DNA of 50,002 nt, the filler included, from Jimgerdemannia flammicorona (lineage: Eukaryota), in NCBI GenBank assembly GCA_003990765.1. It is 2 parts of 2 records of this genome, joined end to end, with 100 filler letters (N's around TTAATTAATTAA, not from the genome) between each part and the next. Parts side by side here need not be neighbours in the genome. Positions count along the whole stretch, not along the records: positions 1 to 24,953 come from RBNJ01000900.1; 1 more part is not named here. One strand, given 5' to 3'. The position numbers were made by a program, and so were the translations under genes. Under the pieces are notes generated by a model. It worked only from the letters and a program-made list of their open reading frames with translations, did no database searches and was not told where the DNA came from. Positions 2,521 to 50,002 of this stretch are shown here, one piece after another. Numbering within the stretch: position 1 is the first letter of the stretch; every line of letters starts with the position of its first letter.

Positions 2521-5516
2521 TAAATATAAACAAATTCTTATCAAATCCACCCATCTGTAAGATATTGCTCCAATCTGCCTGTACAGAACACAGAGCCACT
2601 CATTGTTACTGAGGATAAACTGGTGATCAATATAATGATTAAAATGTCTTCTACATTATATTTTGCATATAAATATAAACAAAATCTTACCAAGTCTACC
2701 CATCTGCAGGATGCTGCTACCTTTCCTGATTTGTATGTATAGAATACAGCACCACCCATTATTACTGAGAATAAACTGATGATTGATACAATGATTGAAA
2801 TATCCACCACTATTATACTTCTACAGATTACTGCTACCCCTTCTGATATTATAACCAATACATATGAACCACCTATTAGCAATAATGGTAAACTGATTGA
2901 CCTATATGATATAGCCATATCTTTAAATATTGTACAGGCTATAGAGTTACCTATCTCTCTGAATCTATATATACAGAATATAGAATCTCTATAGAATACA
3001 GAGCCATTCATAGTTACTGAGGATAAACTGATGATTGATGCTACTCTATCTGATATTATAACTAATACACATAAATCACCTATTAGCAATAATGGTAAAC
3101 TAATGATTGATACTATGATTGAACTACCAGTCATTACTATCAATCTGCATAATATAGCTATATCTTCAAATATCAAGATTAATTGGGCCAACATATCAGA
3201 AATATATAAACAGGCCACAGAGTTATATATTGTAAATAAGGATGAATGGGCAACTAATACTATAGTCAAGTATGAATGGGAAACCAATGCTATGATTGAG
3301 GATGAATATGTAACCAATGCTATAATTGAGGATAAATGGGTAACCAATACTATAGTTAATGATGAATGGGAAACCAATGCTGTAGTCAAAGGTGAATAGG
3401 AAACCAATGTTATAGTTACAGATAAATGGATAATCTATACTATGGCTGAGGTATCTACTATTATATCTCCTCCATGAAATATTACCACTCTTTCAAATGA
3501 TTGAATTCATTGATCTGACCAGCAGCAGCAAGAGGTATCAGAACCTATTATAGAGCTATTGATGGTATATCTGTGACTGATACCTACCTATAAGATGTAG
3601 CTACTCATGATCAATCTGACCATAATATCACTGAGCTGCCAATTGTCAATACAAGTAAATATGTAATTGATATCATAATTAACAAACTTTCATATCTCAT
3701 CAAAGTGCTGGTCCAGTGGCAATTAGATCCCAAAATAGTCATTGGAGAATATATGGCTGGTAGAGTTATTATATGTAATAATGAGTGGATGCTGCTCCAT
3801 GAGGCCACTAAACTAGGAGATCTCAAACTTATTACCATTTTGGTTATAGAACTCAAGGCCAATATCAATCATCAAGAGTATAATGAAATGATACTACTGT
3901 ATGTTGCAGTAGAGAACAATCACCCTGAGGCTGTAGAAATGCTCTATACTATATATGATACTGATATAGAAATTAGAGATCAGTAATATCAAACAATACT
4001 GCAACTGGCAATAGATAGAGAATACTATGAGATAATTAAAATACTCTGCAAAATATTTAGGACTGTGCAGGAAGAAATCAATTCTGCACTCATCTCAGCT
4101 ATTCAAAATAATGACCTCAATATATTTACAGTTCTGATATATAATTGTGGTATTGATCTCATTGAACATAGTAATAATATAGTACTATGACATATAGCAG
4201 CCAGTTTAAACAAAAATGATGACTTTATCTAAATATTTAGAAGTAGAGGAGTAGTATGCATATATTCCAAAACTACCTACAATACAATGGTTGAAAGAGT
4301 TCTATATTTCATAGAATGGCTGAACTGGAGATATAAACAGGATTTAATTATACATTCTGAGGCAATTATTATGAAATATGAGATTTATGAAATTATGTAC
4401 TATAATAGATACTGGACAGTACTACATGAAGCTACCCTACTGGGAGATCTCAACCTTATAGAGAATCTTATTATTGGTCTCAGGTCTAATGTCAACCTGT
4501 AGAGATATGATAAAATTACAGCACTGCATATTGCAGTGGAGCATAATTATTCTGAAGTTGTAAGAATACTCTATGCTAGGTTTGGTGCTGATATTACAAT
4601 CAGGGATTGGTATAATCAAATAGTACTATAATTGGCAATAGATAAAAGACACCACTAGATAATTTGTATGCTATATAATCTGTTTGGAGCTATACAAGAG
4701 AATATCAATTCAACACTCATATCTACTATACTAAATGATGATCACAATATATTCAGAGTCTTGGTAAATAATTGTAGTACCAACACTAGTTAATATAATA
4801 ATGATATAGTCCAATTATATATTCAAAAACATTCTGTCCTTATTGCTGAATTGCAAGAACCAGTTGTAGAGGTATCTATTGATAATGAACTTGCTATTAA
4901 TACTATAATTGAAAGACTTCTATATCTTATCAAAATACTGATCCAGTGGTTATTGGACTCCAGAATAGTCATTATGGAATATATGGCAGATCGAATAGTA
5001 ACCACAAATATTAGACACTGCTCTATAGTGCCAACATATTGGGAGATCTTAAACTCATTGAGATATTTGTTACTTATCTCAAGGCTAATATCAATCTGCA
5101 GGGATATAGTAGAATAATACCACTATATATTATAGTGGTGAAAAATCATCCAGAGGTTGTAAGAATGCTTTGTGCTAGATTCAATACTGATATTAGGATC
5201 CTAGATTGGAGGAACTAAACAGCATTACAACTGGCAGTAGATGGAGGACATCATGAGATAATTTGGATGCTCTATAATTTATTTGGAACTATATAGGAAG
5301 ATATCAACTCTACACTCATCTCTGCAATACTACACAATGACCTTGATATATTTAAGATCCTGGTGCTGGAGTGTGGTACTGATATTAATAAATAGTGTTC
5401 TATAATGGAGTACTTCTATCAATTATGACATATATTCTATTTATGAAAGAGCATAGTGACTTTTATTATATATTCCTTAAATTATCTGATAATACTATAG
5501 ATGATTATCATTTCTG
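2521..5516 (+). pseudogene. Degenerate intronless ankyrin-repeat gene with a repetitive N-terminus
   Basis: Three tandem modules (~3640, ~4290, ~4850) with ankyrin motifs (WMLLHEATKLGDLKLITIL..KANIN; TALHIAVEHNYSEVVRIL). Many in-frame stops are explained by C>T or G>A. Confidence 0.8.
3241..3450 (+). repeat. 30-bp coding tandem repeat (~7 units, DEWETNAIVK-like decapeptide)
   Basis: GATGAATGGG.AAC.AAT.CTAT.GT.AA units, visible in ORF 3031-3399. Confidence 0.85.
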
Positions 5517-5912: not shown

Positions 5913-7910
5913 ATGATCATCAAAAGAGGGAGTATTCAAGGTGAAAACACACTCTCTGCTGACAATGTTAGATTCTTTCTTATTTAGGCAGTACACAAGT
6001 TGCTCATCAAGAGCCAAAGAGGTGATAGCAATGGTGATGGTGGTGGTGATGGCAGGGATGAGAGAGAATTCCAGCAACAACTCACAGCAGTCCTTTGGAT
6101 CTTGGAATTCACAGATCTCAGCTATGTACATGGTAGCCTTTTTGGAGCAGCTAATAGTAGATATAGGTTGCTCACTCTACCACCACTTATTTACTTATAT
6201 TTATTTAAATTTCCCCAGCATGACTCAATTCACCTCATGCTTTTCTTAGGGTCCGCAGCTCTACAGCAAGATCTGCCAACTTTATTTGCAACATCTGATC
6301 AAGATAAAGAAAGGCTGGTGGATGTTGTGGGGTATGCCTTTGGTGGCTGAGCTGTTGAGTCAATATATTATGTAGTAGAGGTCTCAAAAGGAACAGAAGC
6401 AAGCCTTCATGAGCAATCTTGTGCAACTCATGCAACTCGTACAACTCATCAGTATGTAACTTATTAGCATGCAACTCACTCTCTCACTCACTCATACTCT
6501 TTTTCTGAAATACCCATCTCTGTGTTTTATTTAACTTTATTTTTTACATGGTCTCTCTCTAAAAAACACCCACACCCACATACAACCCATCTACATACAA
6601 CCCATCTACATGCAATCCACCCACATACAATCTGTCTGCATATAACCTGTCCACACACAATCCATCCACATGCAACCCATCTATATACTTATCTCAGTCC
6701 CTCAGATCAGGGCTCAGTTCCATTGAAAAGGAGAGTTCAAAGTTACCCAAGTTCAACCATGTCTGGCATCTGATCAAATAGAGAAATTTGAGAGCAAGAT
6801 ATTCAGCATAAGTAGTACCAGCATCATCATCAAGGCTTGGGGGTCTATATTCAAATCAGAGCCAATCGTTCTTGACTAAGGAGTCTATTGGCCAGCAGGA
6901 GTAACCAATGATGAAGATAACTATATCATTATTAACAAATGTGGAGAGGTGGTTGCAATGGTGGTAAGGAATCTCTATGGTGACGAGCTTCACTGCCACA
7001 TCAATGAGATTTGCAAGAATTATATCAAATATTGAGTGACAGGAAAGAGGGGGTGAAAAAAGCAAGGAGGGGGGGGTTTGGATGGAAATTGGATATACTG
7101 CAACATTGGTGAAGGGTGGGTTCTAGAGTTCTGAAATCCCCTACTTTTTTTTACTCCTCTCCAGATAATCACACTCTTTACTAACATACTCTTTTTTGAT
7201 ACAATTTCAGAGAGGCACAAGATTCTATACCTCTACTGGAACTTTTAAAGTACTGTTGAAGAGCAAACTACATGTGAGCATGATATGGTCTGTGTGGTGA
7301 TAGTGGCTATGATCTGGGGTTCTTTGAGCAGATTGGTAGAGCATATGGCAGACCAGCTTGGTAGTGATCTTGGTATGGCTGTATGTATATTCTTGGCACA
7401 ATTTAGTATGCTATATGAGATGAGGAGTTCTGCTTTATTTGGGTGCTACAGCCTGGGGGGTTTCTGCCCCCCTATATGTAAAAAGGACTGACCAGATACT
7501 ATCCATCTAGCAGGTTTCCAAGCTGGGGCTCCTGGGGCTGGACCAAGGGCAGGCATCCACCAGCACAGCCTGACAGTATGAGGTCCTGGGCCAAGGGTTC
7601 ACCCAATCATATACTTGTATCACATCAGAATATATCAGGCAAAATGTTTCTCTGCCCACATACATAGATAACAACATCACTCTGGTAATGTTCTACATTC
7701 TGGAAAGGAAGGGCCCAACCTGGAAGGATAGTGGCAGAGTCTGATATAACCTCACCTATTGTTTTAGGGTCCCATTTGTGGCCAATATAACTATCCTATT
7801 CCAACCACACAACTACTATAACACTGTCACTTTCAAGGAGAGCTTGAACACAATAGTCATTACATTCACAATAGATGACAGGCTCATCAAGGCCTGAAAC
7901 TGGTGAGTGG
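5913..7910 (+). pseudogene. Spliced cargo gene of the hAT; C-terminal region resembles a TET/JBP-family 2OG-Fe(II) dioxygenase (degenerate)
   Basis: Hand translation through stops and introns: IIINKCGEVVAMVVRN ... LQHW*R/RGTRFYTSTGT ... FLAQFSMLYEQVSKL ... YTCITSEYIRQNVSLPT(Y)ID ... WKDSGRV*YNL..FRVPFVANITILFQPHNY(Y)NTVT..E..TIVITFT. This follows the fungal TET/JBP pattern. The His positions read TAC/TAT (7661, 7817). The frame may extend to ~8140. Confidence 0.5.
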
Positions 7911-8140
7911 AGCAGTTTTTGTGAGGGTTAGGCAATCTTTCATGAGGGTCCAGCAGTTATTTTGTACTGGTTGAGCTGGTAGCCAGGCACCTCTTCTGTA
8001 GCACTAGTTTAGCCATTATGCTGGGCCCTACTGGCCCCTTGGCTCTGCTCTTGTAGTGCTGCTGGTGTGGTGCTGCAGTGTAGGACCAGGGTGTCTGTGA
8101 GACCCAAACTGGCGATGGGGCCCAAATATGTAGTAGACTT

Positions 8141-8320
8141 TGACTGCTAAAAGCACCCTCCAACTGCCAAAAACATCCTCTGACTGCCAGAAGCACCCTC
8201 TGACTGCCAGAAGCACCCTCTGACCACCAGAAATGTCCTCCAACTGCCAGAAGCACCCTCTGACCACCAGAAGCACCCTCCGACTGCCAGAAGCACCCTC
8301 CAACTGCCAGAAGCACTCTC
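8141..8320. repeat. 20-bp tandem repeat x9 inside the hAT
   Basis: (TGACTGCCAGAAGCACCCTC)n with transition variants. Confidence 0.95.
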
Positions 8321-8329
8321 TGATCTGAA

Positions 8330-8890
8330 CTTGGACTCCTTGGCAGCTTGGGGCTGCCCCTATGCTGTTGGTGGAGGGCTGCAAATTTTGTGTGCTCCCT
8401 CCACCAACTCTGCTGACCCCTGGCCTGGATACAGGCTGCTGGGTGGAGCTCTGCCCATCCTGGACACTTGCAGCTTAGGGCTGTCCCTTGCTGCTGGTGA
8501 AGGGCTGTAAATTTTGCACACTCTCTCCACTAACCCCATGCCCACCAACCCTGCCAACTGACCCTGCTCACTGACCCTGACCACTGACAGCTTAGAGCTG
8601 CTCCTTGCTGCTGGCAGAGGGCTGCAAATTTTGTGCACTCTCTCTGCCTACCCCCCCCCTCTACCAACCCCCTGTCCTGGATACTTGCAGCTTGGGGCTG
8701 CCCCTTGCTGCCAGCAGAGGGCTACAAATTTTGCACACTCTCTCTGCTGACCCCATACCCACCAATCTGCCCACTGACCCAGGCACTGATAGCTTGGGGC
8801 TGCCTCTTGCTGCTGGTGGAGGGCTGTAAATTTTGTATACTCCCTCTACTGCCACCAATCCTACCGACCACTGTCCCACTTGGGCTGCAA
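8330..8890. repeat. ~100-125-bp imperfect tandem repeat x5 inside the hAT
   Basis: Core CAGCTTGGGGCTG..CTTGCTGCTGGTGGAGGGCTG.AAATTTTG at ~8344, 8470, 8589, 8688 and 8790. Confidence 0.9.
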
Positions 8891-12063: not shown

Positions 12064-13427
12064 ATGATACCAAGTACAAGTAAATACAAGGAGGCTCCCA
12101 AACATAAAGGAATATTTGCTATTACTGCCTGTTGATATGATATTACCCAAATATAAATGAGTATCTGCCATTACTATCTATCTACAAAATACTACTACCT
12201 CTTCTAGTAAATGTATGAAAGTATCTACATCTAAATACAAAAGAGCATCTGCTATTACTGCCTATCTACAAGATACTACCACCTCTTCTAGTGAATATAT
12301 AAAAGTACCTATACTCAAATACAAAAGAGCATCTGCTATTACTATCTATCTACAAGATACCACCACCTCTTCTAGTGAATATATGAAGGTATCTGCTACT
12401 ACTAAACACCAAAAGATACTAGCCAATACTACTCACCCACATAGTGCTGCTACTTCTTTGGGTATTATTATCAATCTGACCAATGAGCTGCAAGAAGTAT
12501 ATGAACCAGTCATAGAGCTATCTACTGTTGATGAACTAGCAGTTGATTTTATTATGAAAAGGCTCTCATATCTCATTGAAAGACTGGTCAGATGGAAATT
12601 CAACCCTAGGGTGGTCATCAGAAAATACTTGGCTGATGGAGTTGTGATCTATAATAATCATTAGACACTGCTCCATGAAGCACTTTACTAGGAGATCTCC
12701 AACTAGTTGGGATCTTTATCACTGATCTCAAGGCCAATATCAATCTGCAGAGATATGACAAAATGACACCACTACATGTTGCAGTAGAGAGTAATTATCC
12801 TGAGGTTGTGTGAATACTCTGTGCTTAATTCCATACTGATACTGAAATTCAGAATTCATTAAATAAAACAGCATTATAGCTGACAATATATAAAAGACAC
12901 CCTGAGATAATGCAAATACTCTATAATGAGGTTGGGGCTATACAAGAAGAACTTATTTGGGAATATATGTGGAGGCAGTCTCAATATATTTAAGATTATA
13001 GTGACTGAGTTTGGTATTGATGTCAATGAATGGTGGGGAGATATAACTCTATTGCATGAGGCAGCTACTTGAGGTTTATTTGTCTTTGTCGAAATACTTA
13101 TCAATTATGATACTGATGTTAATGTAAGGACACCATCAAGTGAATTCACCCCTCTACATATCATATGTGAAAATTACATAAGATGTACTAAGACAGATAA
13201 GATTGTAATTGCCAGGATCCTTATAGAGGCTGGTGCAGATGTGAATGCAAGGAATAAGTTGGGTAGAAACTGCAGTACAATCTAATAACATATATCTTAT
13301 AATATATCTCATTAATGAGTATAAGGCAGATACTAGTATCAGATTATACAATGGTCTGAAGCTATTTGATTTAGCTCAAACAAAAGTAATGGCAAATCTA
13401 TTTCCAGAGATTGCCAGTGACAGATAG
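12064..13427 (+). pseudogene. Second degenerate ankyrin-repeat gene (paralog of 2521-5516)
   Basis: 84-bp N-terminal repeats (KYKRASAITAYLQDTTTSSSEY..). Same pre-ankyrin cap (ELAVDFIMKRLSYLIERLVRWKFNPRVVI). Ankyrin motifs TLLHEA, TPLHVAVE, TPLHI, EAGADVNA. Confidence 0.8.
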
Positions 13428-14120
13428 TTAGGATAACTACATTATTTTATTAAATTAAACCTACCACAATATACTATCATGAGATTACTGAGATTTTAAT
13501 ATATATGAAATTGTTTACAAATAAGATAAAAATACCAAAATTTATAAATATAATTCAAAGAATTACCTGTTCCATGTTTTTATACTATTATGTTGAAAAA
13601 TAGATAATGGAAATTCTAGCAGCAATTATAACATTTGGTGGATGGCTACCTATAAGTACAGTATAATTTAGAGTGGTCTTGTATATGTTTTAACTTTGGA
13701 CAATACCTTTATAAGATCAAGGTGACTCTATAACTCTGCAGAGAGATACTTATCAAATAATATTACAGATCCAGAATTTGCTATTGACATTGAGTTGCAA
13801 ATTTATAAGCTATTAAAAGTTGCTTCTAGTGCTCTTTACCAAATTGAAATTTAATGTATTGTTAGTAATTTCTACCCACCCTACAAATTCATTTGAACAT
13901 TACCAAATTCTGCCCACCCTCAACAAAATTTAAATTTGGCCCCACTCTCAACAAATTGAAATTTGGGAGTAAAACCTGAATTGACTATATCACTAATAAT
14001 ACTTAGAGAAAAGAAGCTTTAAATAATGATAAAAATATTTAAAAGATTACTTCTCATATCAATAGATGGAAATTTTAGCAAGTATGTTCATTTCAGAGAT
14101 TACTGATGATAGATAGTACA

Positions 14121-15634
14121 TATAATAGTGACCCCAGAATGATGACATCAGCACAGGAGATAGCCTTTCCTTGCAAGCCACCAGATCGAAGCACAAGAAG
14201 ATCATATGGCATACAAGATGAGCAATGATGACCAACTGTGAGTTATTGTGACCATAGTATGGATATCTTGAAGAATATAAAAGAAGGATCAAGGAACCAC
14301 AGTAGCAGCAACCAACAAGACCCACCAATCCCAAAATAGCTCAAAGACTTACCACAAATGAAATGCCTGCTGCTTGCCAAACCTCAAGATCAAGGAACCA
14401 CCAAGGCACCTCAGTCAAAGAAAGGATGTTCTAAGAGATCAGAAGAGCCATAAGGACCTACTCAAGAAGGACTCCTAGTATCAACCTGGGTACTGGTAAC
14501 TCTTATCATTATATTCTCTACCACTATGAAATGGAAACAAGGATCACTATTGCTATCAAATACCTCCAAATGTGGCAGGAGTATGAAATAGAAAACCTTC
14601 TCTGCTGGGAGTTCCCACAGGCCAGCCCTCAAGAGCTATAAGATACTACTTCCATAGATATATGCAAAATAAGAACAGCTAAGAAGATCCATCAGATCTT
14701 TAGGTATGTACTATAGTTGATCCCCAACTTGGAGTATGTTAGAGTCTCAGACTTCAGAGACCTGTCAGCCCACCATATCAATGCACTAGAAGCCAGAGTG
14801 GCTACAGAAGCCCAGTCCACTATCACTCTCAATAGTGATGAAGTAGAAGACTTCTGGCATCCCATCCTCCAGGACAACCCAGACTAATTTCTGCAAGGAT
14901 TGATCTCAGTATTCTAAGGCCAAGCATCCAGGTTAGACCTCTCTAAGATCCCACATTTGTCCCCTATTTCATAGAAGAGAACCTCATAGACTGGAGAGCT
15001 CCAGACCTCCTTGTTCCTGCCACCACTGAACATGATGACATTATTGGCAATGACATCATCTCATGTGATCTATGTGATGATGATGAATTCACAGACCTCA
15101 TCTCCTTTGAAGACATCCTGATCTCTAATGAGGATGAAGCTCCTATAGTCTTGAACATTCTGCTCTAAGTCTCTTGGTGATACTGAATTATGCCAGCACC
15201 AGTATTCTGATATGATACTGAATTATTCCAGCACTATTTTCCTGTACCACCAAAATTATACCAGCATCCTGAACCTATGCAACCATCAGTGCCAACACTG
15301 GAACTTAGCAGTTTTCTCTGTTCTGGTATTTTATTTTAGTTATTGGAATTTATATTTAGCTTTATATCTTAGCAATCATTGACTTATATTTTGTATAAAT
15401 ACCCCTCTTATTTCCTCTGAAATAAAGTCAGTCTACTTAGTGCAATACACACAATTCCTTGAAAGCAATCTAAAGAGATAACAAGATAGTTTAAAGATAA
15501 GAAGTTTGAGGACTATAAGATCTTGGGAAGGTACTCCAATAAGAACTTGCTTATAACAAACTTGAGTTAGTCTAAGAGATACACCTTGAAGAGAATCTGA
15601 TATATTTGGAGAACTCAGTGACCATTACATGACA
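14121..15634 (+). repeat. 5' LTR (1514 bp)
   Basis: TATAATAGTG (=TGTAACAGTG)...CATGACA; colinear with 21343-22857. Confidence 0.95.
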
Positions 15635-15754
15635 ACTTTGTGCCCATTGGCTAGTGATTCAAGACGAATCCCTCACTTTCAAGCTGAAAAACAAACAACT
15701 ACCACAACAACTACTCTGACTACAAGAGTCACCCCTGCAAGAATTCAAGATAAG

Positions 15755-17082
15755 ATGGAAATACATCTCTCCACATTCTATAAATATACTACTGAAGAGT
15801 CAATCCTGACCTTCATTGAAGACTTTGAACAATTTGCCACCATATGAGCCCTTGATATGAATGCACAATTGGCTCTTCTATCTGTCAGCCTCAGAGGACC
15901 TGTCAGAGACAAGTTCAATACAGCCACTATTGCTGATAATGGTGCAGCCAAACTTGCCAACATGAAGGCCTTCTTCAGAACAATATACTATACTGAAGAG
16001 ATCAAGCAAGCTCTCAAGGATCAACTCAATACTATCTGCCAGGGACTCAGTGAAGATCCCAACTCATTCTATACCCAAATATGTCACCAGATTATCTTGG
16101 CTGGCTATGATAATGCCCTCAAGGAACAAATAGCAGATTCAACCTTTCTCAAAGGAGTTCACCCTAAAATTGCCCTAGCAATCTGGTCTATCCTAGCTGC
16201 ACTGACCCTTGATCAGAAAGTGGTCCTTGTACAGAGATATTGGACTGCCAGACACTCTGCCAAACACTCAATAGAGAAAATAACTGGCATCAAGATGGAG
16301 CCATCAAAGTCAACTAGTATCATACCCGCTACAGTTGTAAACAGACAACCATCCTCACCTATCCCCAAGACAACCCAGTGGAAGAACTCACTAAGTAGTT
16401 TGCCAAGATGACTGCACACCTTAGTGATGTTGTTAGAGAAGTCTGAAGCACCAACAGGAGACCAGTGCAGAGATTTGCAGCTGCTACAGAAGAACATAAT
16501 ATCACATGCTTCAGATGTAAAGAAGAAGGCCACTATACAAAGAGTTGCATGACTGAAACAAGACACAAAGCTCAACCAAGCAATGCTAGCAGAACCAGAG
16601 AACAAACCAATACAGTAGTCATCGAGGAGATTGGTGATACTGATGATGAAGAATACTACAGAGAGCTTAAATTCTACTCTACTACTGAAGGTACCAGAAC
16701 TCAGTCCAAGCCTTATGACAAGAAGAGCAACAGAAAGCCAGTTGGAAGATCAAAGAAGACTCCAGCTATCACTATTCAAAGTAAGACCCAACCTGAGGAG
16801 ATTGATCAAGATATGGAGTTAGATGAAGCTGCCCAACAAATCATTGAAGGTACTACTCTAGTCTTGGAAGAAAGCAAAAGCAAGAAGGAACAGAAGCTGT
16901 GTAAGACCAAGATCCACCAGTATGATAACTACAAGAACTTCAAGGAACAGAAGGTCAATGCTACTTTTAGACAGCTAGCTGAAGTCCCTGCCTTCAGACA
17001 GCAGTTGAGAGTAAGACTTATAACTACTACCAAGAATCAAGAGTATAAGATTGTAGAAGCTCAATGTATAGAAAGAATCTGA
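15755..17082 (+). pseudogene. gag: Gypsy gag with CCHC zinc knuckle
   Basis: LSTFY..EESILTFIEDFE; ICQGLSEDPNSFY..I; FLKGV; CFRCKEEGHYTKSC at ~16507; one frameshift near 16400. Confidence 0.88.
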
Positions 17083-17149
17083 AAACTCAGATGAAGAATC
17101 CAAAAACTTAGGTGAAGAATCCAAAGACCAGCACAAGACATCAGCCTAT

Positions 17150-17500
17150 ACTCCATATCAGATCAAAGATTGTATCTTTGATGCCATCATTGATACCAGT
17201 GTTGGAGGATGCCTCATGAGCAAGAAAGCAATTGACTGCTTAGGCTAGAATATTGAAGAGTCTACCAAGATGGTCAATGTTACAGTAGATAGTACATGAG
17301 CTACCCCTCTTGGCAAAATCCAAGAGGTCCCCATCAAGATAGGAGGAGCTACCATTCCAGTAGATGTGATTGTTACAAGTGCCACTAACTATAACATCCT
17401 CACTGGCAACCAATGGCTTCACAAGGCCAAGACCATCATTGACCTCAATACCCAGAAGATGCAGATCAACTATAGAGGAAGAAAGGTATGAGTTTCTATC
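17150..17500 (+). pseudogene. Gypsy aspartic protease
   Basis: FDAIIDTSVGG (DTG mutated to DTS) and ILTGNQWL. Confidence 0.85.
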
Positions 17501-17856
17501 AATGTTCATAAAGAAGTCCTACCAGACATAGAGAAGGAGATGAAGAGGATACAGAAGTCTTCATACACTTGGTAAATAAGAACAAGAACAAGAACAAGAC
17601 ACTCAAGCTCACAGATGAGCAGTGGTATAACAAGATCATCAATGGCTATGCCCCTCAAGAAAGATGCCCCCATGGTACTAGGATATACTGCTCTGAACAC
17701 CTGAATGACTGCTGGTCCTGTATTAGTGAAGTCAGGAAAATCTGCCAACAGAAGCATGAGTAAGAAGCCACTAAAGCAAAAAAGAAAGCCAAAGAAGATG
17801 ACCAGCCTCCAGAGCTTCAAGCTGACAGTGATGATGAGGAGGAATAAGAATCAGAC

Positions 17857-18270
17857 ATCACCCTCAAGGTCAAGAAGTTTTACCCCAAAGCCAAGATCCC
17901 AGAATACAAGACTGAAGGAGTCATAGGAATGGACCTTGCCAGCATTCAAGATGCTACCCTTGAACCACAGACCACCACCCTACTTGGCACTGGAATTGGA
18001 GTCAAGCTGCCAGAGAACTATGCCAGAATTATCAAGACCAGGAGCAGTCTGGCCAAAAGTGAAATCTCAGTTGAAGGAGGAGTAATTAACCCTGATTATA
18101 CTGGCAAGATCTTCCTCATAGTTAAGAATCACAACCCCACCACCCCATCTGAAGTCAAGAAGCATGATAGGATTGGCCAGATGCTGATCCATGAAATCAA
18201 GAAGCCTAAGATCACTGAAGCCATTAAACTCATCAAGATCAAGAGAGGAGAACAAGGCTTTGAATCTACT
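17857..18270 (+). pseudogene. dut: Trimeric dUTPase domain in pol, between PR and RT
   Basis: Motifs GMDL, RSSLA, GGVINPDYTG, RIGQM and RGEQGFEST. Confidence 0.92.
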
Positions 18271-18419: not shown

Positions 18420-21033
18420 TACAGACTTCAGGGATATCCATAATCAAGAACCCAAGTATTATCATGAAGTTTACACTGGCAATATCAAGCCCATCTACCA
18501 AAAAGCCAGACCCATACCACCTGTCTACAGAGAATGGCTGCAAGCAGAACTCAAGGAAATGAAAGAAGCCAGAATCATCAAGCAAGCTATCAGTCCCTGG
18601 GCTTCACCTATTGTCCTCACCCTAAAGAAAGAAAGCAAGCCTGGAGAGTTTGTGCCAAGACTCTGTATTGACTACAGGAAGCTCAATGCCATCACTAAGA
18701 AGGATAGGCAGCTCTTGCCAAATATTTAAGAAATCCTTACTACTCTAGAAAGTGAAGCCAAATACTACACCACCTTGGATCTGTTCTCAGGCTTCCATCA
18801 GATTGGTCTCACTCAAGATGCCAGTGAGAAATCAGCCTTCATCACACCTGATGCCACCTATATCTACCTGCAAATACCATTTGGAATATACAATGCCCCA
18901 GCAAGCTTTCAGCAAATGATGAACAGAGTCTTCAGCAATGAGATTGGAAAATAGCTCTTTGTCTATGTTGACAATATGATCATCTTTAGCAATACTGTAT
19001 GAGAACATATCAATTACATACAGCTAGCCCTCAAGAAGCTCAAGGAGCATGGCCTCTACATCAAGCCCAATAAATGTAAGTTTGCAGCTCAGGAAATTGC
19101 CTACCTAGGATACCTCATCAACCAGATCAGAATCTACACAGATCCCATGAAGATTGAGGCTGTTGCAGTCTATCCAAGACCCAGAACAACTACAGAAGTC
19201 CATGCCTTCCTTGGACTGGCCAGCTACTACAGAAGATTTATCAAAGAATACTCTAACATTGCAGTACCTATCTATGAGCTACTGAAGAAGGAGACAAAAT
19301 TTGAATAGACCAAGGAATGCTAAGAAACCTTTAATGAACTCAAGACCAGGTTGACCCAAGCACTTATCCTCAGAAGACTAGATTGGAACCTAGAGTTCAT
19401 CCTGCAGATAGATGCAAATACTATAGGACTTGGAGCAGTCCTAGCTCAGAAGAAAGATGGATATGAATATGTCATCTCCTATACAAGCTGAGGTACCCAT
19501 GGAGCAGAACAGAATTACGAGTCATGCAAGCTCAAATGCTTAGCAGTAGTATGGGCTGTAGACAAGTTCCACTACTACCTAGCTAGGAAACACTTCACCA
19601 TTCAAACAGACCATTCTGCTCTTGCCTGACTATTCCACACTCTGAACTCCAAAGGAATATATGTCAGATAGATCTACAGGCTGCAAGAGTATGACTGTAC
19701 TGTCAAGCACTACTCAGAAAGAACTAATACCAATACTGATGCACTCTCAAGGACACCCCAAAACACCCCCATCAAGACTATTCAACATGAATAAGGAGTT
19801 ATACTAAGGATTAATCAGCTACCTTGGGCAGTAAAAGATGCTCAACCACCTTGAACCCTGGACAATCACTATCATCAACCAGACTTGGAAACAGTTTCAA
19901 CTAGACAATACTACACTCAGAAAAGGAGAAAAACTTGTAATATCTGAATATAAGAAGTATCATGTAATGGAGGAAGTACATGAACAAGGACACCTAGGAG
20001 GAACCAACATATATGACAAGGCAAAAAGAACCATATGGTGGTATAAGATGGAAGAAGACCTGTGCCAATTTGTCAAAGAGTGTAACAAGTGCCAAAAACA
20101 GAAACAAGATCAGCAAGACCAGATATCCGGGTCATCAAGAATTGAGCCTATCCTCTTCCACTATATTGCAATGGATATCATTGGGCTACTATCAGTAACA
20201 ATATCAGGAAACTACTATATTATAGTTATTGTAGACCTCTTTACTAAATGGATAGAAGCAGGAGCATTACAAGAAGCCAATGCCCTCTCTATAGCTGACT
20301 TCCTATACTGAGAAATTATCTGCTACTACAAGACACCAAAGCAATTCACTACAGACCATGGCACAGAATTTGTTAATGGATTCCATGAGATAATGTATCA
20401 GAAATACAAGATTCAGCACATCAAGACCACTGCATACCACTCTCAAGGAAATGGATAGACAGAAAGAATCAACAAGACTCTCAAGAACATTCTGGTGAAG
20501 ATCTCAGACACATATGAGAATTGGGATAACTACCTCCCAACTGCCCTCTCTGTCCTATGAGACATATGGTCACAGAGCACACACTTTACCCCAAGAGAAC
20601 TGCTCTTCAGAGAAGAAGATTCTGATGGAACCTCAGCTACAAATCTAGACCTAACTTGGAGATGGGTTAATGCAAAAATCCAGAGACTACACCAAATCAG
20701 GAAGAAGGCTGAAGATTACATCATCAAGTCACAAACGCTGATAAGAAAGAATATAGAAAAGAATCACAAGACCCTAGAACCCATCCAAATTGGAGAAAAG
20801 GTCTTACTGTATCAAAATATGGTAGAGGCCTCATGGTCACAAAAACTGGAGCCCAAATGGAAAGGACCCTTCTATATGCAAGATAAAAGGGAACTACCTT
20901 CTGGCTTAGAAAAATCTCAGAGACCATACTGCCTACCATGATATACAAAAACAGACTCAAGAAGTACCATGAACCTATACAAGAGAAGCAAAACATAATG
21001 ACTGCCCATGAGGTTCTAGTCTACGAATCATAA
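18420..21033 (+). pseudogene. pol: Gypsy RT, RNase H and integrase
   Basis: SPWASPIV, LCIDYRKLN, LDLFSGFHQI, PFGIYNAPASFQ, VYVDNMIIFS; ILQIDAN..GLGAVL, TDHSAL, NTNTDALSR; HEQGHLG..CNKCQ, MDIIG, VDLFTKW, TDHGTEF, GNG*TERIN, KWKGPF. Stop at 21031-21033. Confidence 0.95.
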
Positions 21034-21044
21034 CAGTATGTCCC

Positions 21045-22391
21045 ATGACCAGCAGGCTATCTGTCTGGACCATTCTCTAAGAGATACAGTACCAGCAACT
21101 ACTCATCCATGAGACTTTTGAAGCTAGAGGAGTTTGAACCATCAACTGATTGATCAAGATCAGAATCAGGCCCTTGCTCTATATGAAGGGAGTGACCCTT
21201 CACTATCACACCAAAATATATAGAGAAGCAGCCTATAAACACTCTTTTCGACCCCCTTGTCAGAGGTTATGGGATTAGCAAATTTTTCAGGACTAGACTA
21301 ATGAATAAAGATGCTCAAGAAGATTCTTATTCAGGAGGAAGATGTAACAGTGACCCCAGAATAATGACATCAGCACAGGAGACAGCCTTTTCTTGCAAGC
21401 CACCAGATCAGAGTATAAGAAGATCATATGGCATATAAGATGAGCAATGATGACCAACTGTAAGTCATTGTAACCACAGTATGGGTATCTTGAGGAATAT
21501 AAAAAAAGAATCAAGGAATTGCAGTAGCAGCAACCAACAAGACCTATCAATCCCAAAATAGCTTAAAGACTTACTACAAATGAAATGCCTACTGCTTGCC
21601 AAACCTCAAGATCAAGGAACTACCAAGGCACCTCAGTCGAAGAAAGGATGTTCCAAGACATCAGAAGAACTATGAGGACCCACTCAAGAAGGACTCCTAG
21701 TGTTAACCTGGGTACTGGTAATTCTTATCATTATATTCTCTATCACCATGAAATGGAAACAAGGATCACTATTGCTACCAAATACCTCTAAATGTGGCAG
21801 GAGTATGAAATAGGAAACCTCCTCTGCTGGGAGTTCCCACAGGCCAGCCCTCAAGAGCTATAAGATACCACTCCCATAGATATATGCAAAACAAGGACAG
21901 CTAAGAAGATCCATCAGATCTTCAGGCATGCACTATGGTCAATCCCCAACTTGGAGTATATTAGAGTCTCAGACTTCAGAGACCTGTCAGCCTGCCATAT
22001 CAATATACTAGAAGCCAGGGTGGCTACAGAAGCCCAGTTTACTATCACCCTCAATAGTGATGAAGTAGAAGACTTCTGGCATCTCATCCTCCAGGACAAC
22101 CCAGACCAATTCCTGCAAGGATTGATCTCAGTATTCCAAGGCCCAAGCATCCAGGTTAGACCTCTTCAAGACCCCACATTTGTCCCCTATTTTGTGGAAG
22201 AGAACCTCATAAACTGGAGAGCTCCAGATCTCCTTATTCCTGCTGCTGCTAAATGTGATGATGTCATCAGCAATGATGTCATCCCATGTGACCTATGCAA
22301 TGATGACAAATTCATAGACCTTATCTCCTTCAAAGACATCCTGACCTCTAATGAGGATGAAGCCTCTATGGTCTTGAACATTCTGCTCTAA
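21045..22391 (+). pseudogene. Accessory ORF3 (~448 codons) in the env position, extending into the 3' LTR; unknown function
   Basis: Single frame from ATG 21045 to TAA 22391, which includes ORFs 21585 and 21951. Several stops are CAA in another LTR copy. Indels between LTR copies mostly preserve frame. Confidence 0.65.
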
Positions 22392-22857
22392 GTCTCTTGG
22401 TGATACTGAATTATACCAGCACTGGTATTCTGATGTGACACTGAATTATTCCAGCACTATTTTCCTATACCACCAAAATTATACCAGCATCCTGAACCTG
22501 TGCAACCATTAGTGCTGATATTAGAACTTAGCAGTTTTCCCTGTCCTGGTATTTTATTTTAGTTATTGGAATTTATATTTAGCTTTATATCTTAGCAACC
22601 ATTGAATTATATTTTGTATAAATACCCCTCTTATTTCCTCTGAAATAAAGTCAGTCTACTCAGTGCAATATACATAATTCCTTGCAAGCAATCTAAAGAG
22701 ATAACAAGACAGTTTAAAGATAAGAAGTTTGAGGACTATAAGATCTTGGGAAGGTACTCTAATAAGAACTTACTTATAACAAACTTGAGTTAGTCTAAGA
22801 GATATACCTTGAAGAGAATCTGATGTATTTGGAGGACTCAGTGATCACTATGTGACA
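21343..22857 (+). repeat. 3' LTR (1515 bp)
   Basis: TGTAACAGTG...TATGTGACA, immediately after the PPT. Confidence 0.95.
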
Positions 22858-23899
22858 ATAGTTAGGATAACTATATTATTTTGTTGGATTAAACCTATTA
22901 CAAATATACTATTATAAGATTACTAAGATTTTGATATATATATATGAAATTATTAAAATTCTTAAATATAATTTAAATAATTAATTGTTTTATGTTTTGT
23001 ACTATTATATTAAAAATAGATGAACCATTTTGTATAAGAGTGATTCAGTCACCAAGATCCTTTAGAGAATCCCTCCTTACATATATATCAATTTATTAAG
23101 CTAATAAAAGCTAGTGCCAAAAAGTTTAGTCAATATCATATAGTTAGACTGTTTTATTTAATATCAAAATGTACTCAGGATTACTGTAAAAAGAATGAAA
23201 TTATACTGAGTGATAAAGCCAAACACACATATATATTTATAGATTCAATGTTACTATATGTAATATCTATCACTCCAGAGTTCTGATGACTATACTGATT
23301 TGGTTATTGGCTGTTAATATAAGTGCTGCTGTCAGTAGATTGGAAACTGACATAGGTGCAAGATATTTCTAAAGCAAGTGTGGTGGAAGACAAGAAATAA
23401 GAAACTGGCATTATATATTTTGTGAATAAAGTCATATATCCAGATAGGTATAACTGCTTTTCAATGTCTAGCTTAGACTAACTTCCTTGAGACATGATGT
23501 TCCAATAAATTAAATGTAAAACTAAGGTGAGACTTTATATTTTAGCAATAGAATTTATGATTAATATATTTTAGAATAGCAAAGAATACTATTTATTTAA
23601 CTGCCTTAACCTGAGGACCCTTTTTGATCATAGAGATCACACCAGCTTATATATTATTCTTGAGTGGACTTCATTAAAATACTCCTTAGAGAGCTTATAA
23701 GAACAAGTACTCATCCACTGAAAGTGGTGTGAGGAAATATTAGCCTTCTTTTTAAAATATATTGAGCATCATATGTACTAGATAGCTAGATATTGTTGCT
23801 TTTGTTATTGCTTTTGCCATTACTCTTGCCATTGCTTCTACTTAATTCAATGTTACTACCCAACATGAGTGATCTCTTTAAGTATCAAAAAATCCTCTT

Positions 23900-24539
23900 A
23901 ATGGCACTCTAATGTGAATTATTATAGTAGGAGGAGTATTGCACCATCTTATTCATAGAATATGATATATGTATCAGGTCTTATTCCTAATATGAGATAT
24001 ATGAGAGAGCCAACTACTTGCTGATAGGGAATATTGTTGGTACTGTTCTTAGTGAGCATATTGTTGTCATCCTTAGGAGTAGTATCAGGCTTCCTTAATT
24101 TCATAGAAGTATTTATAAGAGTACTGATGGGCTTGCAATCACTCATATTAAATTATTCCAAAATGGCTTTGGCATATATTTCTTGTGAGAGGTATATGGT
24201 ATATGTATTCCTGTCATATATAATGGATATCCCCAAAAGGAAGGACACATCACCCATATTAGTCATCTTGAATTCTCAGTATAGAGTTTCCTTTACTCTG
24301 TTAAGCCTATTCTTATTGGCTATGATGATTATATCATCAATCCATATGCCAATAAATACTATGCCATTATCATAATATACAATTGTCTACTTTACAATAC
24401 TTGAATCCATTTAAGGAGATATTTATCAATTCTTTTATTCTATAGGCATACTGCTTGCTTAATACTATATAGTCTTTTATATAGTCTATATATAAGCTTG
24501 CTGTTCTGGTTGTCATATAGTTTATATCCTTATAGTCAG
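23900..24539 (-). mobile_element. Ty1/Copia RT fragment, highly degenerate
   Basis: KRLYSIKQA..*NKRID (=LYGLKQA), FIGIWIDDIII, KMTNMGDVSFLLGI, PYQQVVGSLIYLILGIRPD. Confidence 0.85.
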
Positions 24540-24953
24540 TGATGGCATCTCTCTCTAACTCTCCAACATCCCCCAGAGAACCCAGTCCGACCACCATATC
24601 ATCGGCGAAGGCCCCCACCTTCCAGTTCACCCCTAGAATGTCCAAACCTCCAATCCTATGCCGAATCCTGTCCAGTAGCGGCTCCAGGGAAAGGGCATAC
24701 AATATGGGTGACAAGGGGTCCCCTTGTGGCACCCCGCGGCCCAGGGGAAAGTTCACCCCCCGGTGGCCATTGATGACCAATGCCACCTGACTGTCCTCCA
24801 ATAGGCTGATCAACGAACCTCGGAATCCTGGGGGGACTCCAACCCGCTTCAGCACTCCTTCCAGCCATATTCTCTGCACTCTATCATAAGCCTTCTCCTG
24901 GTCTAGAAATACCAATCTGCCATCCACCCCTGTAGCCCGGGCACCTTCAATCA
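24540..24953 (-). mobile_element. L1-clade LINE RT fragment (young, CpG-retaining), cut by the assembly gap
   Basis: FLDQEKAYDRV, GVPQGDPLSPILYALSLEPLL, AFADDMVV. Same family as 48110-48510. Confidence 0.92.
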
Positions 24954-25053
24954 NNNNNNNNNNNNNNNNNNNNNNNNNNNNNNNNNNNNNNNNNNNNTTA
25001 ATTAATTAANNNNNNNNNNNNNNNNNNNNNNNNNNNNNNNNNNNNNNNNNNNN
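24954..25053. other. Assembly gap / artificial contig linker
   Basis: 100 positions of N with a central TTAATTAATTAA (24998-25009), which gives stops in all frames. Adjacency across it is not supported. Confidence 0.97.
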
Positions 25054-27779: not shown

Positions 27780-30562
27780 GTTGACGATTGGTTCATCAAT
27801 TTCGCATCCAGGATTCTACGATAACTACGTGAAGACAAACTACTACGACGATTTGTGGTTGTTCAACATTCTAGAGTACAAAGTGCGAGATACAAATTTG
27901 TTGTTTATAGAATGTCGGCTGCGCTTTCAACGTGCACATCACTGACGATCCTTTGAGCGCACTTCACGATAGTGGACGAAACTGGAGATGCCCGAGCCCA
28001 CCACGAAACCAAGGTGGGTAAAACCGTAACCCAAAACACGATGGTAGATCTCACGCTGCCGGTTTGCAATATTATGGTGACAAGTGCTAACCTTTCCCAA
28101 CGTACCTACCGAAACCCTAGCGCCCGCAGCGGCTTCTGCTTCATCCCAACCACCGATGGCGTCATCTTGCACGGCGGCTACTGCAAGCAGTACGTAAAGG
28201 GGCAGCGTGCCAAGGGGATTGTGCATTCGGGTGAGTGGATCGTTCCCTGTGGGTGTATGAGTCGATAAGCGGCTGAGTTTGAAACTGACTGTTTGGGTGC
28301 TCGTTTTCACGCAGACACGTGGTTATTGAAGATGAACCCAGAGACGAAGCTGATCAAGTGGGAGAAGCGGAGAAGGTCGGGGTTCGCGCCGAGGTTGGTT
28401 CGCGTTATTGGTTTCTAGGTATTTATTGTTTGTTGTCCCGCTATGTGTGTTTACGAATGTGGCACCCTTTATGCATCGGTTTATTCCCCATATAATTTCA
28501 ACCGTAGTCCTCGTAGCGGGGCTACGATGGCCGTATTCAAAAACCGCGCAGTCCTATTCGGTGGGGTATACGACGAGGACGTGAGCGAGGAGAAGTTGGA
28601 GAGTACATTTTATAATGAGCTGTAAGTGGACACATTTCTGCATTAATGATGATCCAAACCGTCGTTGCGAAATCGCCATACACCATGTTCTACAAATAAC
28701 TTGTGTTGCTACGCAGATACACCTACCAGATTGATTCCGGACGATGGTTCCCGTTAAATCTCAAGAAGCCCAAGAAGCCCAAGAAGCCGAAACAGCCGCA
28801 AAATCAGCAGAGAAGAGGAAACGAGAGCGATTCGGATGTCGAGGTTTGTTTACTTTTCCAACATTATAAAACGTTCTAATGTTCGATCACGTACTTGAAA
28901 TCTCCAAAAATTCTATCACCAATCACCATGTCCAGATGGACTTTGAATCCGACGAGGACGCTCCACGCTCCAAACCGACTCCTTCCAAACCGACCGCCGC
29001 TCCCGCCCCACCACCTGCAGCTGACGACGACCCGGACCTGCCACAGCCATGCCCGCGCTACAACACTATGATGTGCGTGCAACGGTCCACGCTGTTCGTT
29101 TACGGCGGAATCTTTGAGGCCCGCGAGAAAGAATACACGCTTGACGACTTCTGGACCCTCAACATGGACAAGATGACCGAGTACGTTTGCCTCAAGAGCT
29201 CCGAGATCGACGCCCAGGTGTGGCTGGGCGAGGAGAGTGGGGATGAGGACGAGGATGAGGATGAGGAGGGGGAAGATGAGGATGAGGATGATGAGGATGA
29301 GGAGGAAGAAGAGGAAGAGGAAGAAGAAGAGGAGGAGGCGGGGGTGGAAGATGAGATGGAGGTGGAGATGGAGGTGGAAGTGGAAGTAGATAAAAAGACG
29401 AGAAAAAAGAAGGATGAGAAGGTGGGAAGGAAAGGGGAGGGAATGGAAATTGAGCGAAAAGAGAAGAGCAAGAAAGAGAAGGGAGTACATGTCAGGCCGT
29501 ATGATGACAAGGCGGAGGATGAGGATGAGAATGGGGATAAAGAGGTAGAGGTGGAGGCAGAAGTAGATACAAAGTTAAAGAAGAAGGAAAAGGAAAAGGA
29601 AAAGGAAAAGCAAGTTGATCGAAAAGAGAATGGCGGGAAGAAAGATAAGGGAGAGGATGCTGGACCGGGCGATGACAAGTTGGATAGGAAAGGAAAGAAA
29701 AAAAGGAAAGATAAGGAGGTGCGGCGGAACGACGAGGAAGAGCAAAAGAAGGAAAAGAAGATGACAAAAAAGAAGTCAACCGACAACGGCGACGTCGAGA
29801 TGCAGCCAGTCGAGGTCCGCACTCTAATCAATTTGTCGAGCATACTTCCGTGGATATTTCGGATTCGCCTGTTCTTTCATCTTTATTCCAAACCCGATCC
29901 TGAAAAATCGTTCTTCAGACATCACAGACTCCCGTGCAAGCAGATGTCTTCGCTGGTGTCTCTCGTCGGGGGCAAGATGTGTGAATCATTGTTTTCTCTG
30001 CTTTGCGTAAACAGTTATGCATCAATATGTGGATAGTTAACGTGTTCTCACTGCCCCTCCGCAGACAAAAATAAACGAAGAAGAGGTGCTCAGTACACCG
30101 AAACCGGGCGAGTCATTGAGAGAGTTCTATGCGAGGACAAGTAAGTATTCGGGAGCATGCCGTTTAGGATGAATCTTATTTTTTATTTTTTCCTTCCCCC
30201 TGTAATGATATCTTCAACGTAATCAATACAACTTCTCTAGCCACCCACTGGTCCCAGAAGATGTACGAGCAGGAGGGCACCATCCACGGTTCGCATCGAC
30301 CCGCGTGCCATGTTGCCCTTATTTTTTACAACCATTATATCCTTCCTTAACCTTATCTGTTCTTTCTTCACTAGGTAAGGCCCTACGGCGCGACGCTTTC
30401 CAGCTCGCGCAGGACCGCTACAATGAGTACCAGCCCATTCTAGCGGAGATTGAGAAACTGCGCATCGCCGCAGGGATGGACGAGGAGGACGAGGCCGACG
30501 GGAAGAAGGGCGGATCAGCGGCGAGCGGGTTCGATAAGATGGCGTCGAGGAATAGGAGGTAG
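26286..30562 (+). CDS. KEL3: Kelch-domain-containing protein 4 (KLHDC4/Kel3-like) with C-terminal DUF4110-type domain; multi-exon
   Basis: MAKDKKKKK start; EEDIESILARF; kelch blades ELILFGGE, PGPRSSHQ, PSARSGHRM, PRSG..MAV..LFGGV, PCPRYN; acidic/Lys-rich insert; TPKPGESLREFYART..GKALRRDAFQLAQDRY. GT-AG introns; exon bounds only partly resolved. Confidence 0.9.
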
Positions 30563-49400: not shown

Positions 49401-50002
49401 GACTTCCTCCCAAATTCTGGGTGGTATAGTGGCAAATACTGTGGAGAAATATCATATTGAATTACTATATTAAGCATATGGTAGATGGTGGCCATTTTAA
49501 TTGTGAGGAGTGCTACAATATTGGGCAAGCTGGGGGACTTATGCAGATACCAGAACACTGGCTGGGAGAGTGTGAGGTTTTGGGGAACTTTTGGATAGAA
49601 ATAGGAAATAGACTGAGTGTGGAGTATAGGCTGGCAGGGGCAGGAGGCTGCTGGGAGGACTTGAGATCTTGACTAGTAGGAGGTGTAGGAGATAGTTGGC
49701 TCACTGTAGAATGGGTGTTAGCAGTATGGGTGGGACTGGCTGGACATTGGCTTTTTATATTCGAGGAGGGGAGGTAGATGGGGTTGCAGGAGAAGGTATT
49801 ACAGTTGGAGGAGTTGTTGGAGGATCTGCTAACTGGGTGGTGGGTGGGTTGGGGTCCTCAGAGGGGGTAATATTGTGGCTTGGTGGTGAGGATCTGTAAA
49901 CAGAGTAGTGGGAGGATAGAGATAGTGTTGGACAGAGTAGCCTTTCATCGAGTAGGGGTAAGGGGGGGTGGGGGGCCAAGGGAGATCAGTTAGGAGGAGA
50001 GT
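46438..50002 (+). mobile_element. 5'-truncated L1-clade LINE (ORF2: APE C-terminal half, RT, CCHC), degenerate
   Basis: Begins at FNMVQD..LDR (GDFN region); RID*IL, WSDH, WRLNSSLL; APGEDG, RPIMLL, FLDQKKAYD, GVPQGDPLSP, AFIDD, YLGI; CEEC..EHWLGEC. Confidence 0.92.
47363..47707. mobile_element. Second fold-back hAT-type MITE (345 bp), inserted in the LINE
   Basis: TAGTGCTCCCAAAC...TTAGAAGCACTA; imperfect TSD GCCACTAC / GCC-CCAC; related to 40629-41028; retains several CpGs. Confidence 0.88.

Follow-up and report, generated by a model that had tools for sequence, protein, structure and literature searches.

A putative zinc-finger-like module between protease and dUTPase in two dead LTR retrotransposons of Jimgerdemannia flammicorona

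Introduction

What is a short, Cys- and His-containing segment doing between the protease (PR) and the dUTPase of two retrotransposons that otherwise share little? The question is raised by a stretch of 50,002 nucleotides from Jimgerdemannia flammicorona (two parts of assembly GCA_003990765.1 joined by filler; hereafter, the window), in which two LTR-type elements, here element 1 and element 2, carry such a segment next to a dUTPase, on opposite sides of it. Accessory domains are rare in LTR retrotransposons, and each tells something of what limits retrotransposition. The dUTPase itself has been reported from different positions in elements of fungi and rotifers, and how it is put to use has been left unexplained. 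A preliminary interpretation made from the DNA alone (the sequence-only reading) had described the segment as a zinc-binding module of ~39 residues with the ligand order Cys, His, Cys, Cys (CHCC), accompanying dUTPase in two different Gypsy families, which it was unable to assign to a named retroelement domain.

Results

Two dead elements with different domain orders

Element 1 is a Ty3/Gypsy LTR retrotransposon, with an LTR pair, a gag CCHC knuckle, PR, and reverse transcriptase (RT) followed by integrase (IN) (Table 1). By Pfam, its domains run in the order gag CCHC, PR, module, dUTPase, RT, IN, with Integrase_H2C2 at 19955-20107. The element is complete but dead: it contains stops and a frameshift, and its LTRs are just 91% alike. 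The protease has two in-frame stops and lies in a frame other than that of the module, the frame changing near 17520-17535. In P0002, a 90%-identical database relative, a single frame runs from the end of the protease through module and dUTPase into the start of RT and, therefore, the change of frame in element 1 represents decay. P0002 also carries PF00078, which supports the assignment of RT in element 1.

In element 2, the Pfam order is gag CCHC, dUTPase, module, RVP_2 protease. The element ends at ~46467, where it is replaced by unrelated GC-rich sequence, and blastn within the window detected no LTR pair for it. Having lost a ligand, acquired stops and been truncated, this element is dead as well.

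The orders PR-CHCC-dUTPase-RT for element 1 and gag-dUTPase-CHCC-PR for element 2, both proposed in the sequence-only reading, agree with the Pfam domains. The accompanying assignment to two Gypsy families holds for element 1, in which RT precedes integrase; element 2 is cut off after the protease, so that its order of RT and IN is not visible and it is a candidate Gypsy element only. The claim that the elements are otherwise dissimilar stands: between the dUTPases, identity is 34% over 140 residues and, within the window, gag and PR of the two elements gave no tblastn match at E ≤ 1 save for 14-residue pieces of the CCHC knuckles.

Table 1 Features of the two elements in the window.
Feature	Coordinates	Strand	Evidence
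Element-1 5' LTR	14120-15635	+	blastn against 21342-22858: 91.1% over 1517 nt
Element-1 gag, two open frames (15848-16411 and 16447-17082)	15848-17082	+	ORFs
Element-1 gag CCHC knuckle, canonical	~16501-16551	+	zf-CCHC E 0.0016, residues 19-35 of second frame
Element-1 aspartic protease	17144-17467 (wider span 17102-17520)	+	Pfam Asp_protease E 1e-05, RVP_2 E 2.9e-05
Element-1 CHCC mini-domain	17614-17757 (core 17617-17733)	+	tblastn, pattern scan, AF2 model
Element-1 dUTPase	17887-18270	+	Pfam dUTPase E 2.7e-23, residues 14-141 of frame from 17848
Element-1 reverse transcriptase, approximate, decayed	18640-19116	+	RVT_1 on 19003-19308, E 1.6e-05; RT-like motifs
Element-1 integrase, HHCC zinc domain and start of core	19955-20296	+	Integrase_H2C2 E 5.9e-14, rve E 0.0034
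Element-1 3' LTR	21342-22858	+	blastn against 5' LTR
Element-2 gag CCHC knuckle, contains stop	45307-45360	+	zf-CCHC E 0.0017, residues 58-75 of read from 45136
Element-2 dUTPase, decayed, several stops	45460-45840	+	Pfam dUTPase E 4.9e-30, residues 109-235
Element-2 CHCC mini-domain, decayed	45877-45993	+	Tyr at first ligand; stop 45955-45957
Element-2 aspartic protease	46045-46398	+	RVP_2 E 3.2e-08, residues 304-421

Elsewhere in the window, the element-1 family is represented by a third LTR, which is partial (417-1414; 83% identical to the 5' LTR over 1061 nt) and probably either stands alone as a solo LTR or marks one end of a further copy. The GC-rich sequence by which element 2 is truncated (46467-50002) holds an RVT_1 match at 48303-48698 (+; E 1.1e-09), and a second RT fragment is found at 24370-25005 (-; E 3.3e-14); both are unrelated to elements 1 and 2. 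A dispersed repeat family (6065-7902 and 39823-41925, 73-79% identical), present just upstream of element 2, is not its LTR pair. Tandem arrays occupy 8123-8363, 3203-3442, 12144-12401 and 8458-8867, with periods of 20, 30, 84 and ~100 nt. Pieces of a galactose/glyoxal-oxidase-like host gene lie at 28870-30036 (+) and 32976-33503 (+) (GO-like_E_set, E 2.9e-26), with weak Kelch/beta-propeller matches below the cut-off; in the ESM Atlas, this ORF matched a mixture of clusters from bacteria and plants.

The module is constrained as a protein

Translation of the window returned both module peptides as the sequence-only reading had written them: EQWYNKIINGYAPQERCPHGTRIYCSEHLNDCWSCISEV for element 1 (17617-17733, +) and EQFYKKIEDGYVPSGQYLHGIGMYSF*MIDDCFSCVNEL for element 2 (45877-45993, +). 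They align without gaps, also as claimed, with 16 of 39 residues identical. When the element-1 module was compared with all six frames of the window using tblastn, element 2 was matched at E 1.15e-08 (34% over 53 aa), the next match having E 0.47; the reciprocal search from element 2 recovered element 1 at E 3.3e-09, and no third copy was found in the six frames. Nucleotide identity between the two copies is 28/39, 24/39 and 16/39 at codon positions 1, 2 and 3, respectively. The third position being the least conserved, the module appears to have been constrained as a protein.

The ligand pattern, C-x-H-x12-C-x2-C, has a single exact occurrence when the window is translated in all six frames; this lies in element 1, where the codons are Cys 17665-17667, His 17671-17673, Cys 17710-17712 and Cys 17719-17721. 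Element 2 lacks the exact pattern because its first ligand position is Tyr, encoded by TAC instead of TGC; as the sequence-only reading had noted, its Y-L-H (TAC CTC CAT) is two transitions away from the C-P-H of element 1 (TGC CCC CAT). The length of ~39 residues given there was too short, the predicted folded unit comprising ~48 residues (17614-17757 in element 1). A stop codon follows the element-1 module (17761-17763).

Database relatives keep the ligands

Altogether, 15 true relatives were collected, 10 with phmmer, one (P0002) with a word-index search and four with a profile search. The phmmer search covered 1.84 billion representative proteins and yielded 15 matches, namely, 10 retroelement-like fragments and five spurious hits; the word-index search, in which the 62-aa stretch was compared with longer proteins, yielded P0002 as the one match among 13 candidates. 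The HMM built from the family matches the relatives at E 1e-17 to 1e-28. These searches identify the module as a real homologous unit with 15 relatives in the databases.

The five spurious hits (P0007, P0012, P0013, P0014 and P0015) were rejected: they lack C-x-H-x12-C-x2-C and are not matched by the family HMM at E ≤ 10. All are long repeat proteins, each aligned in 4 to 11 stretches; P0007, P0012 and P0013 carry bacterial secretion-type domains, and the proteins of the set have Ig_7, CHU_C, RCC1 or Por_Secre_tail domains or are matched by no family. That a Cys-rich query of 62 residues drew E values down to 3e-10 from such proteins calls for caution in searches with short domains.

Among the relatives, the first Cys and the last Cys are present in 15 of 15, the His in 14 (Tyr in P0011), and the first Cys of C-x2-C in 13 (Tyr in P0009, Gly in P0020), so that 12 of 15 retain all four ligands. 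Each of P0009, P0011 and P0020 is a fragmentary gene model changed at one ligand position, and these may be decayed copies. The intact relatives of element 2 (P0019, P0010 and P0021) have C-P-H where the copy in the window has Y-L-H; P0019 is a 560-residue open read that includes gag, CCHC, dUTPase, module and the start of PR. Conservation of the Cys and His residues, chosen beforehand as one of the points on which the sequence-only reading would stand or fall, is thus observed in most of the family, intact relatives of element 2 included.

An additional Cys and His in the middle of the module (Y-C-x-E-H) are present in 9/15 and 7/15 relatives, respectively; in the element-2 family they are replaced by Ser and Met, which places them outside the minimal site. 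In P0003 and P0006, a further Cys precedes the first ligand by three residues (C-G-x-C-P-H), bringing the number of candidate ligands up to seven, which hints that the putative metal site varies. In the gag of element-2-type relatives, there is also a second short stretch, C-P-H-x3-W-C, upstream of CCHC (around 160-168 in P0006 and 163-170 in P0019), with a decayed counterpart near 45052 in the window; the family HMM gives these stretches only negative scores.

In a phylogenetic tree built from 17 module sequences over 43 columns, the element-2 module groups with P0021, P0011 and P0019 (support 82/82). One of the 14 inner branches is well supported and, accordingly, the tree makes no statement on whether the two architectures form clades.

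The module matches no domain in the resources searched

The sequence-only reading had failed to assign the module to a named domain, and none of the resources searched here assigned it either. Pfam gave no match to the module in the 112-aa element-1 read at E ≤ 1; at E ≤ 10 across 12 members, 11 families appeared, none in more than two members. The family profile had two matches to PDB sequences at E ≤ 10 (best E 3.2). Foldseek on PDB returned 40 matches at E ≤ 10; the best of them had E 3.1, no TM exceeded 0.28, and E ≤ 0.001 was never reached. In the ESM Atlas, the best score was 0.75, to an unnamed cluster, and a literature search recovered no description of the module.

Several domains with comparable ligands were considered individually and rejected. 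The gag-type zinc knuckle, zf-CCHC (PF00098), requires C-x2-C-x4-H-x4-C; it does not match the module at E ≤ 10 in 12 members, whereas both gag knuckles in the window are matched. The HHCC domain of integrase (PF17921), with spacing H-x(3-7)-H ... C-x2-C, did not match the module, and element 1 has an Integrase_H2C2 domain of its own. RING (C3HC4) domains have eight cross-braced ligands that bind two zincs, compared with four conserved ligands here, six in some members; zf_RING_Vps8_fungal appeared in a single member (E 0.0026; 18.7 bits against a cut-off of 27.4), and so did zf-C3HC4_3 (E 0.073). CCCH fingers of the tristetraprolin type have the spacing C-x8-C-x5-C-x3-H, and the match to 1m9o_A (E 3.2 over 24 positions) aligns the first Cys of that finger with a column that is hydrophobic in the module. 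Pfam zf-CHCC, for which the spacing is C-x8-H-x14-C-x2-C, is absent from the families matched at E ≤ 10 in 12 members or at E ≤ 1 in the 112-aa element-1 read. The Gag CHCC of the CsRn1 clade differs in all three spacings and in location, and CCHC is retained here. Within the resources covered, the module appears to be a new zinc-finger-like family of a known kind, that of accessory zinc modules in LTR retroelement polyproteins.

A compact predicted fold with a putative zinc site

The AF2 model of the 62-aa element-1 query (starting at 17575; 12 aligned sequences; mean pLDDT 81.1, pTM 0.58) consists of a helix (14-22), a hairpin (29-37) and two further helices (40-45 and 47-61), with C-P-H at the tip of the hairpin and the long helix starting at C-x2-C. 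A separate AF2 run on P0010, from the subtype in which the middle Cys and His are missing, again produced a helix, a hairpin, a short helix and a long helix, in that order. In that model, pLDDT is 82-86 over residues 211-260 and below 50 at 189-209 and 269-296, and these low-confidence segments separate the module from the well-predicted dUTPase core. Structure prediction, another of the checks proposed earlier, thus gives the two subtypes the same compact fold, and the module is predicted to be a small, autonomously folding domain of ~48 residues inside the Gag-Pol polyprotein of a dUTPase-carrying LTR retrotransposon lineage.

Cys and His on a hairpin tip combined with Cys at a helix N-terminus is the usual zinc-finger layout. 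We infer fairly safely that the module would bind one zinc ion; the order of secondary structures in both models fits a treble-clef-like layout with a single zinc. A complex prediction with two element-1 modules and zinc, run without an alignment and with the fold uncertain (score 0.00, mark 0.32), counts neither way.

Charged stretches flank the module. The core itself has a net charge of -3 to 0 in 12 of 12 sequences and is not basic, whereas the 14 columns after C-x2-C form a mildly basic flank (net charge -1 to +5). In having a non-basic core the module differs from nucleocapsid knuckles, which favours a protein as its binding partner no less than a nucleic acid.

The module lies between PR and dUTPase

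A Pfam dUTPase domain is present on the same fragment in 13 of the 15 relatives, preceding the module in 11 of them and following it in two, in line with the proposed association between module and enzyme. The relatives that show no dUTPase are P0005 (82 aa) and P0008 (157 aa); the latter, in which 74 and 64 residues flank the module with no recognisable dUTPase, is possibly a true exception. The sequence-only reading had also held that the module always lies between PR and dUTPase, and this is the case in 8/8 sequences with both flanks visible, i.e. the two copies in the window, P0002, P0009, P0010, P0011, P0017 and P0019 (in P0009, P0010 and P0019, the PR side was recognised by alignment or by the D-S-G motif rather than by Pfam). 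A word-index search with the element-1 dUTPase yielded P0002 alone among 233 candidates and is uninformative on co-occurrence.

Compared with proteins in which dUTPase precedes the module, the element-1 module shows 40-60% identity and the element-1 dUTPase 28-44%, and the element-1 protease matches nothing significant in them (E ≥ 0.4). By this comparison, the module is the best-conserved piece between the two architectures. The element-1 module is nearer to P0003 and P0004 than to P0009, and the element-1 dUTPase is nearer to P0009; this difference rests on 4-5 residues, and different histories of module and enzyme are not claimed.

Discussion

A possible adaptor for dUTPase and its alternatives

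Our preferred interpretation, held tentatively and with slightly less than even confidence, is that the module would be a one-zinc adaptor finger that stays with dUTPase and holds the enzyme at the reverse-transcription complex. The zinc would be coordinated by the Cys and His of the C-P-H-G turn at the beta-hairpin tip and by the two Cys of C-x2-C, where the last helix begins. The finger would remain attached to dUTPase after processing, a step that can be proposed with much less safety than zinc binding, and would retain the enzyme at the RNA/protein complex of reverse transcription, so that dUTP would be removed where cDNA is made. What suggests an adaptor is the association with dUTPase, the mildly basic flanks of the module, and the precedents of the betaretroviral NC-dUTPase and the rotifer Juno elements discussed below. 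Nevertheless, a canonical gag CCHC is kept in both families and, in the element-2 type, lies only ~33-48 residues upstream of dUTPase, so that an extra tether seems redundant there. The neutral to acidic core, the two relatives that show no dUTPase on their fragment and the three that have lost a ligand also count against the adaptor. Furthermore, the module adjoins PR as consistently as it adjoins dUTPase, and the data are therefore silent on which partner is served.

Indeed, the same position could speak for a role on the protease side, where a zinc domain next to PR would aid Gag-Pol dimerisation, time the activation of the protease or present cleavage sites, much as the transframe region and the G-patch flank retroviral proteases at a comparable position. 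The module adjoins PR in 8/8 sequences in which the PR side is visible, its core is not basic, and the low-confidence linkers on both sides of it in the long AF2 model could hold cleavage sites. We nonetheless consider such a role unlikely: the module follows PR in one architecture and precedes it in the other, it is conserved between the families while PR is not detectably so, and all 15 relatives come from dUTPase-type contexts or short fragments, none combining PR and module without dUTPase. The neutral to acidic core would equally suit an adaptor, half-RING or treble-clef-like, that recruits a host factor, such as a repair, import or ubiquitin-pathway protein, and acts on neither dUTPase nor PR. 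The conserved C-x-H ... C-x2-C resembles the second zinc site of RING domains, for which this is the ligand pattern, and weak, sub-threshold RING matches were seen in 2/12 members (zf_RING_Vps8_fungal and zf-C3HC4_3). However, each of these matches is confined to a single member, with the former under its cut-off, the candidate ligands number 4 to 6 rather than eight, neither the profile nor Foldseek found a PDB match, and the constant location between PR and dUTPase would be left unexplained; recruitment of a host factor is, in our estimate, more unlikely still.

The co-occurrence with dUTPase in 13/15 relatives would also be expected of a passenger, that is, a piece of the donor gene captured along with the enzyme and without a role of its own. 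Such a passenger would hardly be found N-terminal of dUTPase in one architecture and C-terminal in the other, nor be more conserved than the enzyme, and the phmmer scan of 1.84 billion representatives showed the module in no cellular-looking protein, its 15 matches being 10 retroelement-like fragments and five spurious bacterial repeat proteins; we deem this origin improbable. Finally, the Cys and His could form no metal site at all, being engaged in disulfides or incidental to a conserved linker, as the lack of one ligand in 3/15 relatives might indicate. Those three are, however, fragmentary gene models that differ at a single ligand position each, and the four positions are kept in 12/15 relatives against an overall identity of 40-60%, with AF2 placing them on a hairpin tip and a helix N-terminus. 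Retroelement polyproteins, moreover, act in the reducing cytoplasm or nucleus, which counts against disulfides, and we give this explanation very little credence.

Implications

A module at the PR/dUTPase junction that is more constrained than the enzyme is a candidate for transposable element annotation libraries and a marker for the present lineage. The adaptor interpretation further provides a testable idea, namely, that retroelement dUTPases need a tether; should it fail, a zinc-finger-like fold outside the catalogued domains would still be left. Beyond mobile-element biology, these observations have no bearing on long-standing questions.

A broader and rather doubtful extension is that the CHCC finger might be a new accessory cassette of LTR retroelements that moves independently and couples a captured dUTPase to the replication complex. 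If so, taken together with the betaretroviral fusion and the Juno knuckle, retroelement dUTPases of animals and of the present host would each be tied to a zinc finger, and a general rule would follow whereby dUTPase works only if kept where reverse transcription occurs. Recombination that shuffled the cassette between families would then account for the higher conservation of the finger and its switch of side.

Comparison with known systems

A local match of 10 residues around C-P-H-G was found in MutL chain 8h1g_A (domain E 24, whole-sequence E 8). In the C-terminal endonuclease domain of MutL, C-P-H-G-R-P is a metal-binding motif; the likeness covers the C-P-H-G turn plus the hydrophobic residue and the Tyr that come after it, whereas the rest of the domain is unrelated. 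We take the match as a lead that C-P-H-G can hold metal and not as a sign of relationship. Among other accessory zinc modules, the WCCH domain of Pyret is located between NC and PR.

Of the named motifs, the one closest to the module is the Gag CHCC motif in the CsRn1 clade of Ty3/Gypsy elements, C-x2-H-x9-C-x3-C (PMC2582038), which resembles the present module in the ligand order Cys, His, Cys, Cys and in the type of element. The gaps are, however, x2/x9/x3 as opposed to x1/x12/x2 here, and the CsRn1 motif, as described, replaces CCHC at the C-terminus of Gag in elements of flukes and insects (PMC2582038), whereas the present module lies between PR and dUTPase and CCHC is retained. Among fungi, dUTPase-bearing Gypsy elements have been reported as the PosPlaTy3 families of Postia placenta and in Phanerochaete and Tuber, and the authors argue for independent acquisitions of dUTPase (Novikova et al. 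2010, PMC2864245). As in the window, the position of dUTPase in pol varies by family and includes the interval between PR and RT; in contrast, the figure legend of that report names CCHC and HHCC zinc motifs only, with no module beside dUTPase (PMC2864245).

In concept, the closest parallels come from two systems in which a zinc finger accompanies dUTPase. In Mason-Pfizer monkey virus, the NC-dUTPase fusion is reported to take up trimer symmetry on oligonucleotide binding (PMC1802613). There, too, a zinc finger is joined covalently to dUTPase via flexible segments (PMC1802613), and element 2 shares the betaretrovirus-like order of NC knuckle, dUTPase and PR. The betaretroviral finger is nevertheless an ordinary, strongly basic CCHC nucleocapsid, whereas here CCHC is present together with an extra module whose ligands are patterned differently and whose core is not basic. 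In the Juno elements of rotifers, dUTPase is followed by an extra Zn knuckle, an arrangement that, according to the authors, departs from standard organisation (Rodriguez, Kenefick and Arkhipova 2017, PMC5408684). Juno (Juno1 and Juno2), found in bdelloid rotifers, differs in having its finger on the RT side, in the order PR-dUTPase-knuckle-RT, the two systems being compared by description only; the likeness is that of an additional zinc-finger-like motif in pol beside a dUTPase that lies between PR and RT (PMC5408684), so that, going by that description, a zinc finger accompanying a retrotransposon dUTPase has a precedent.
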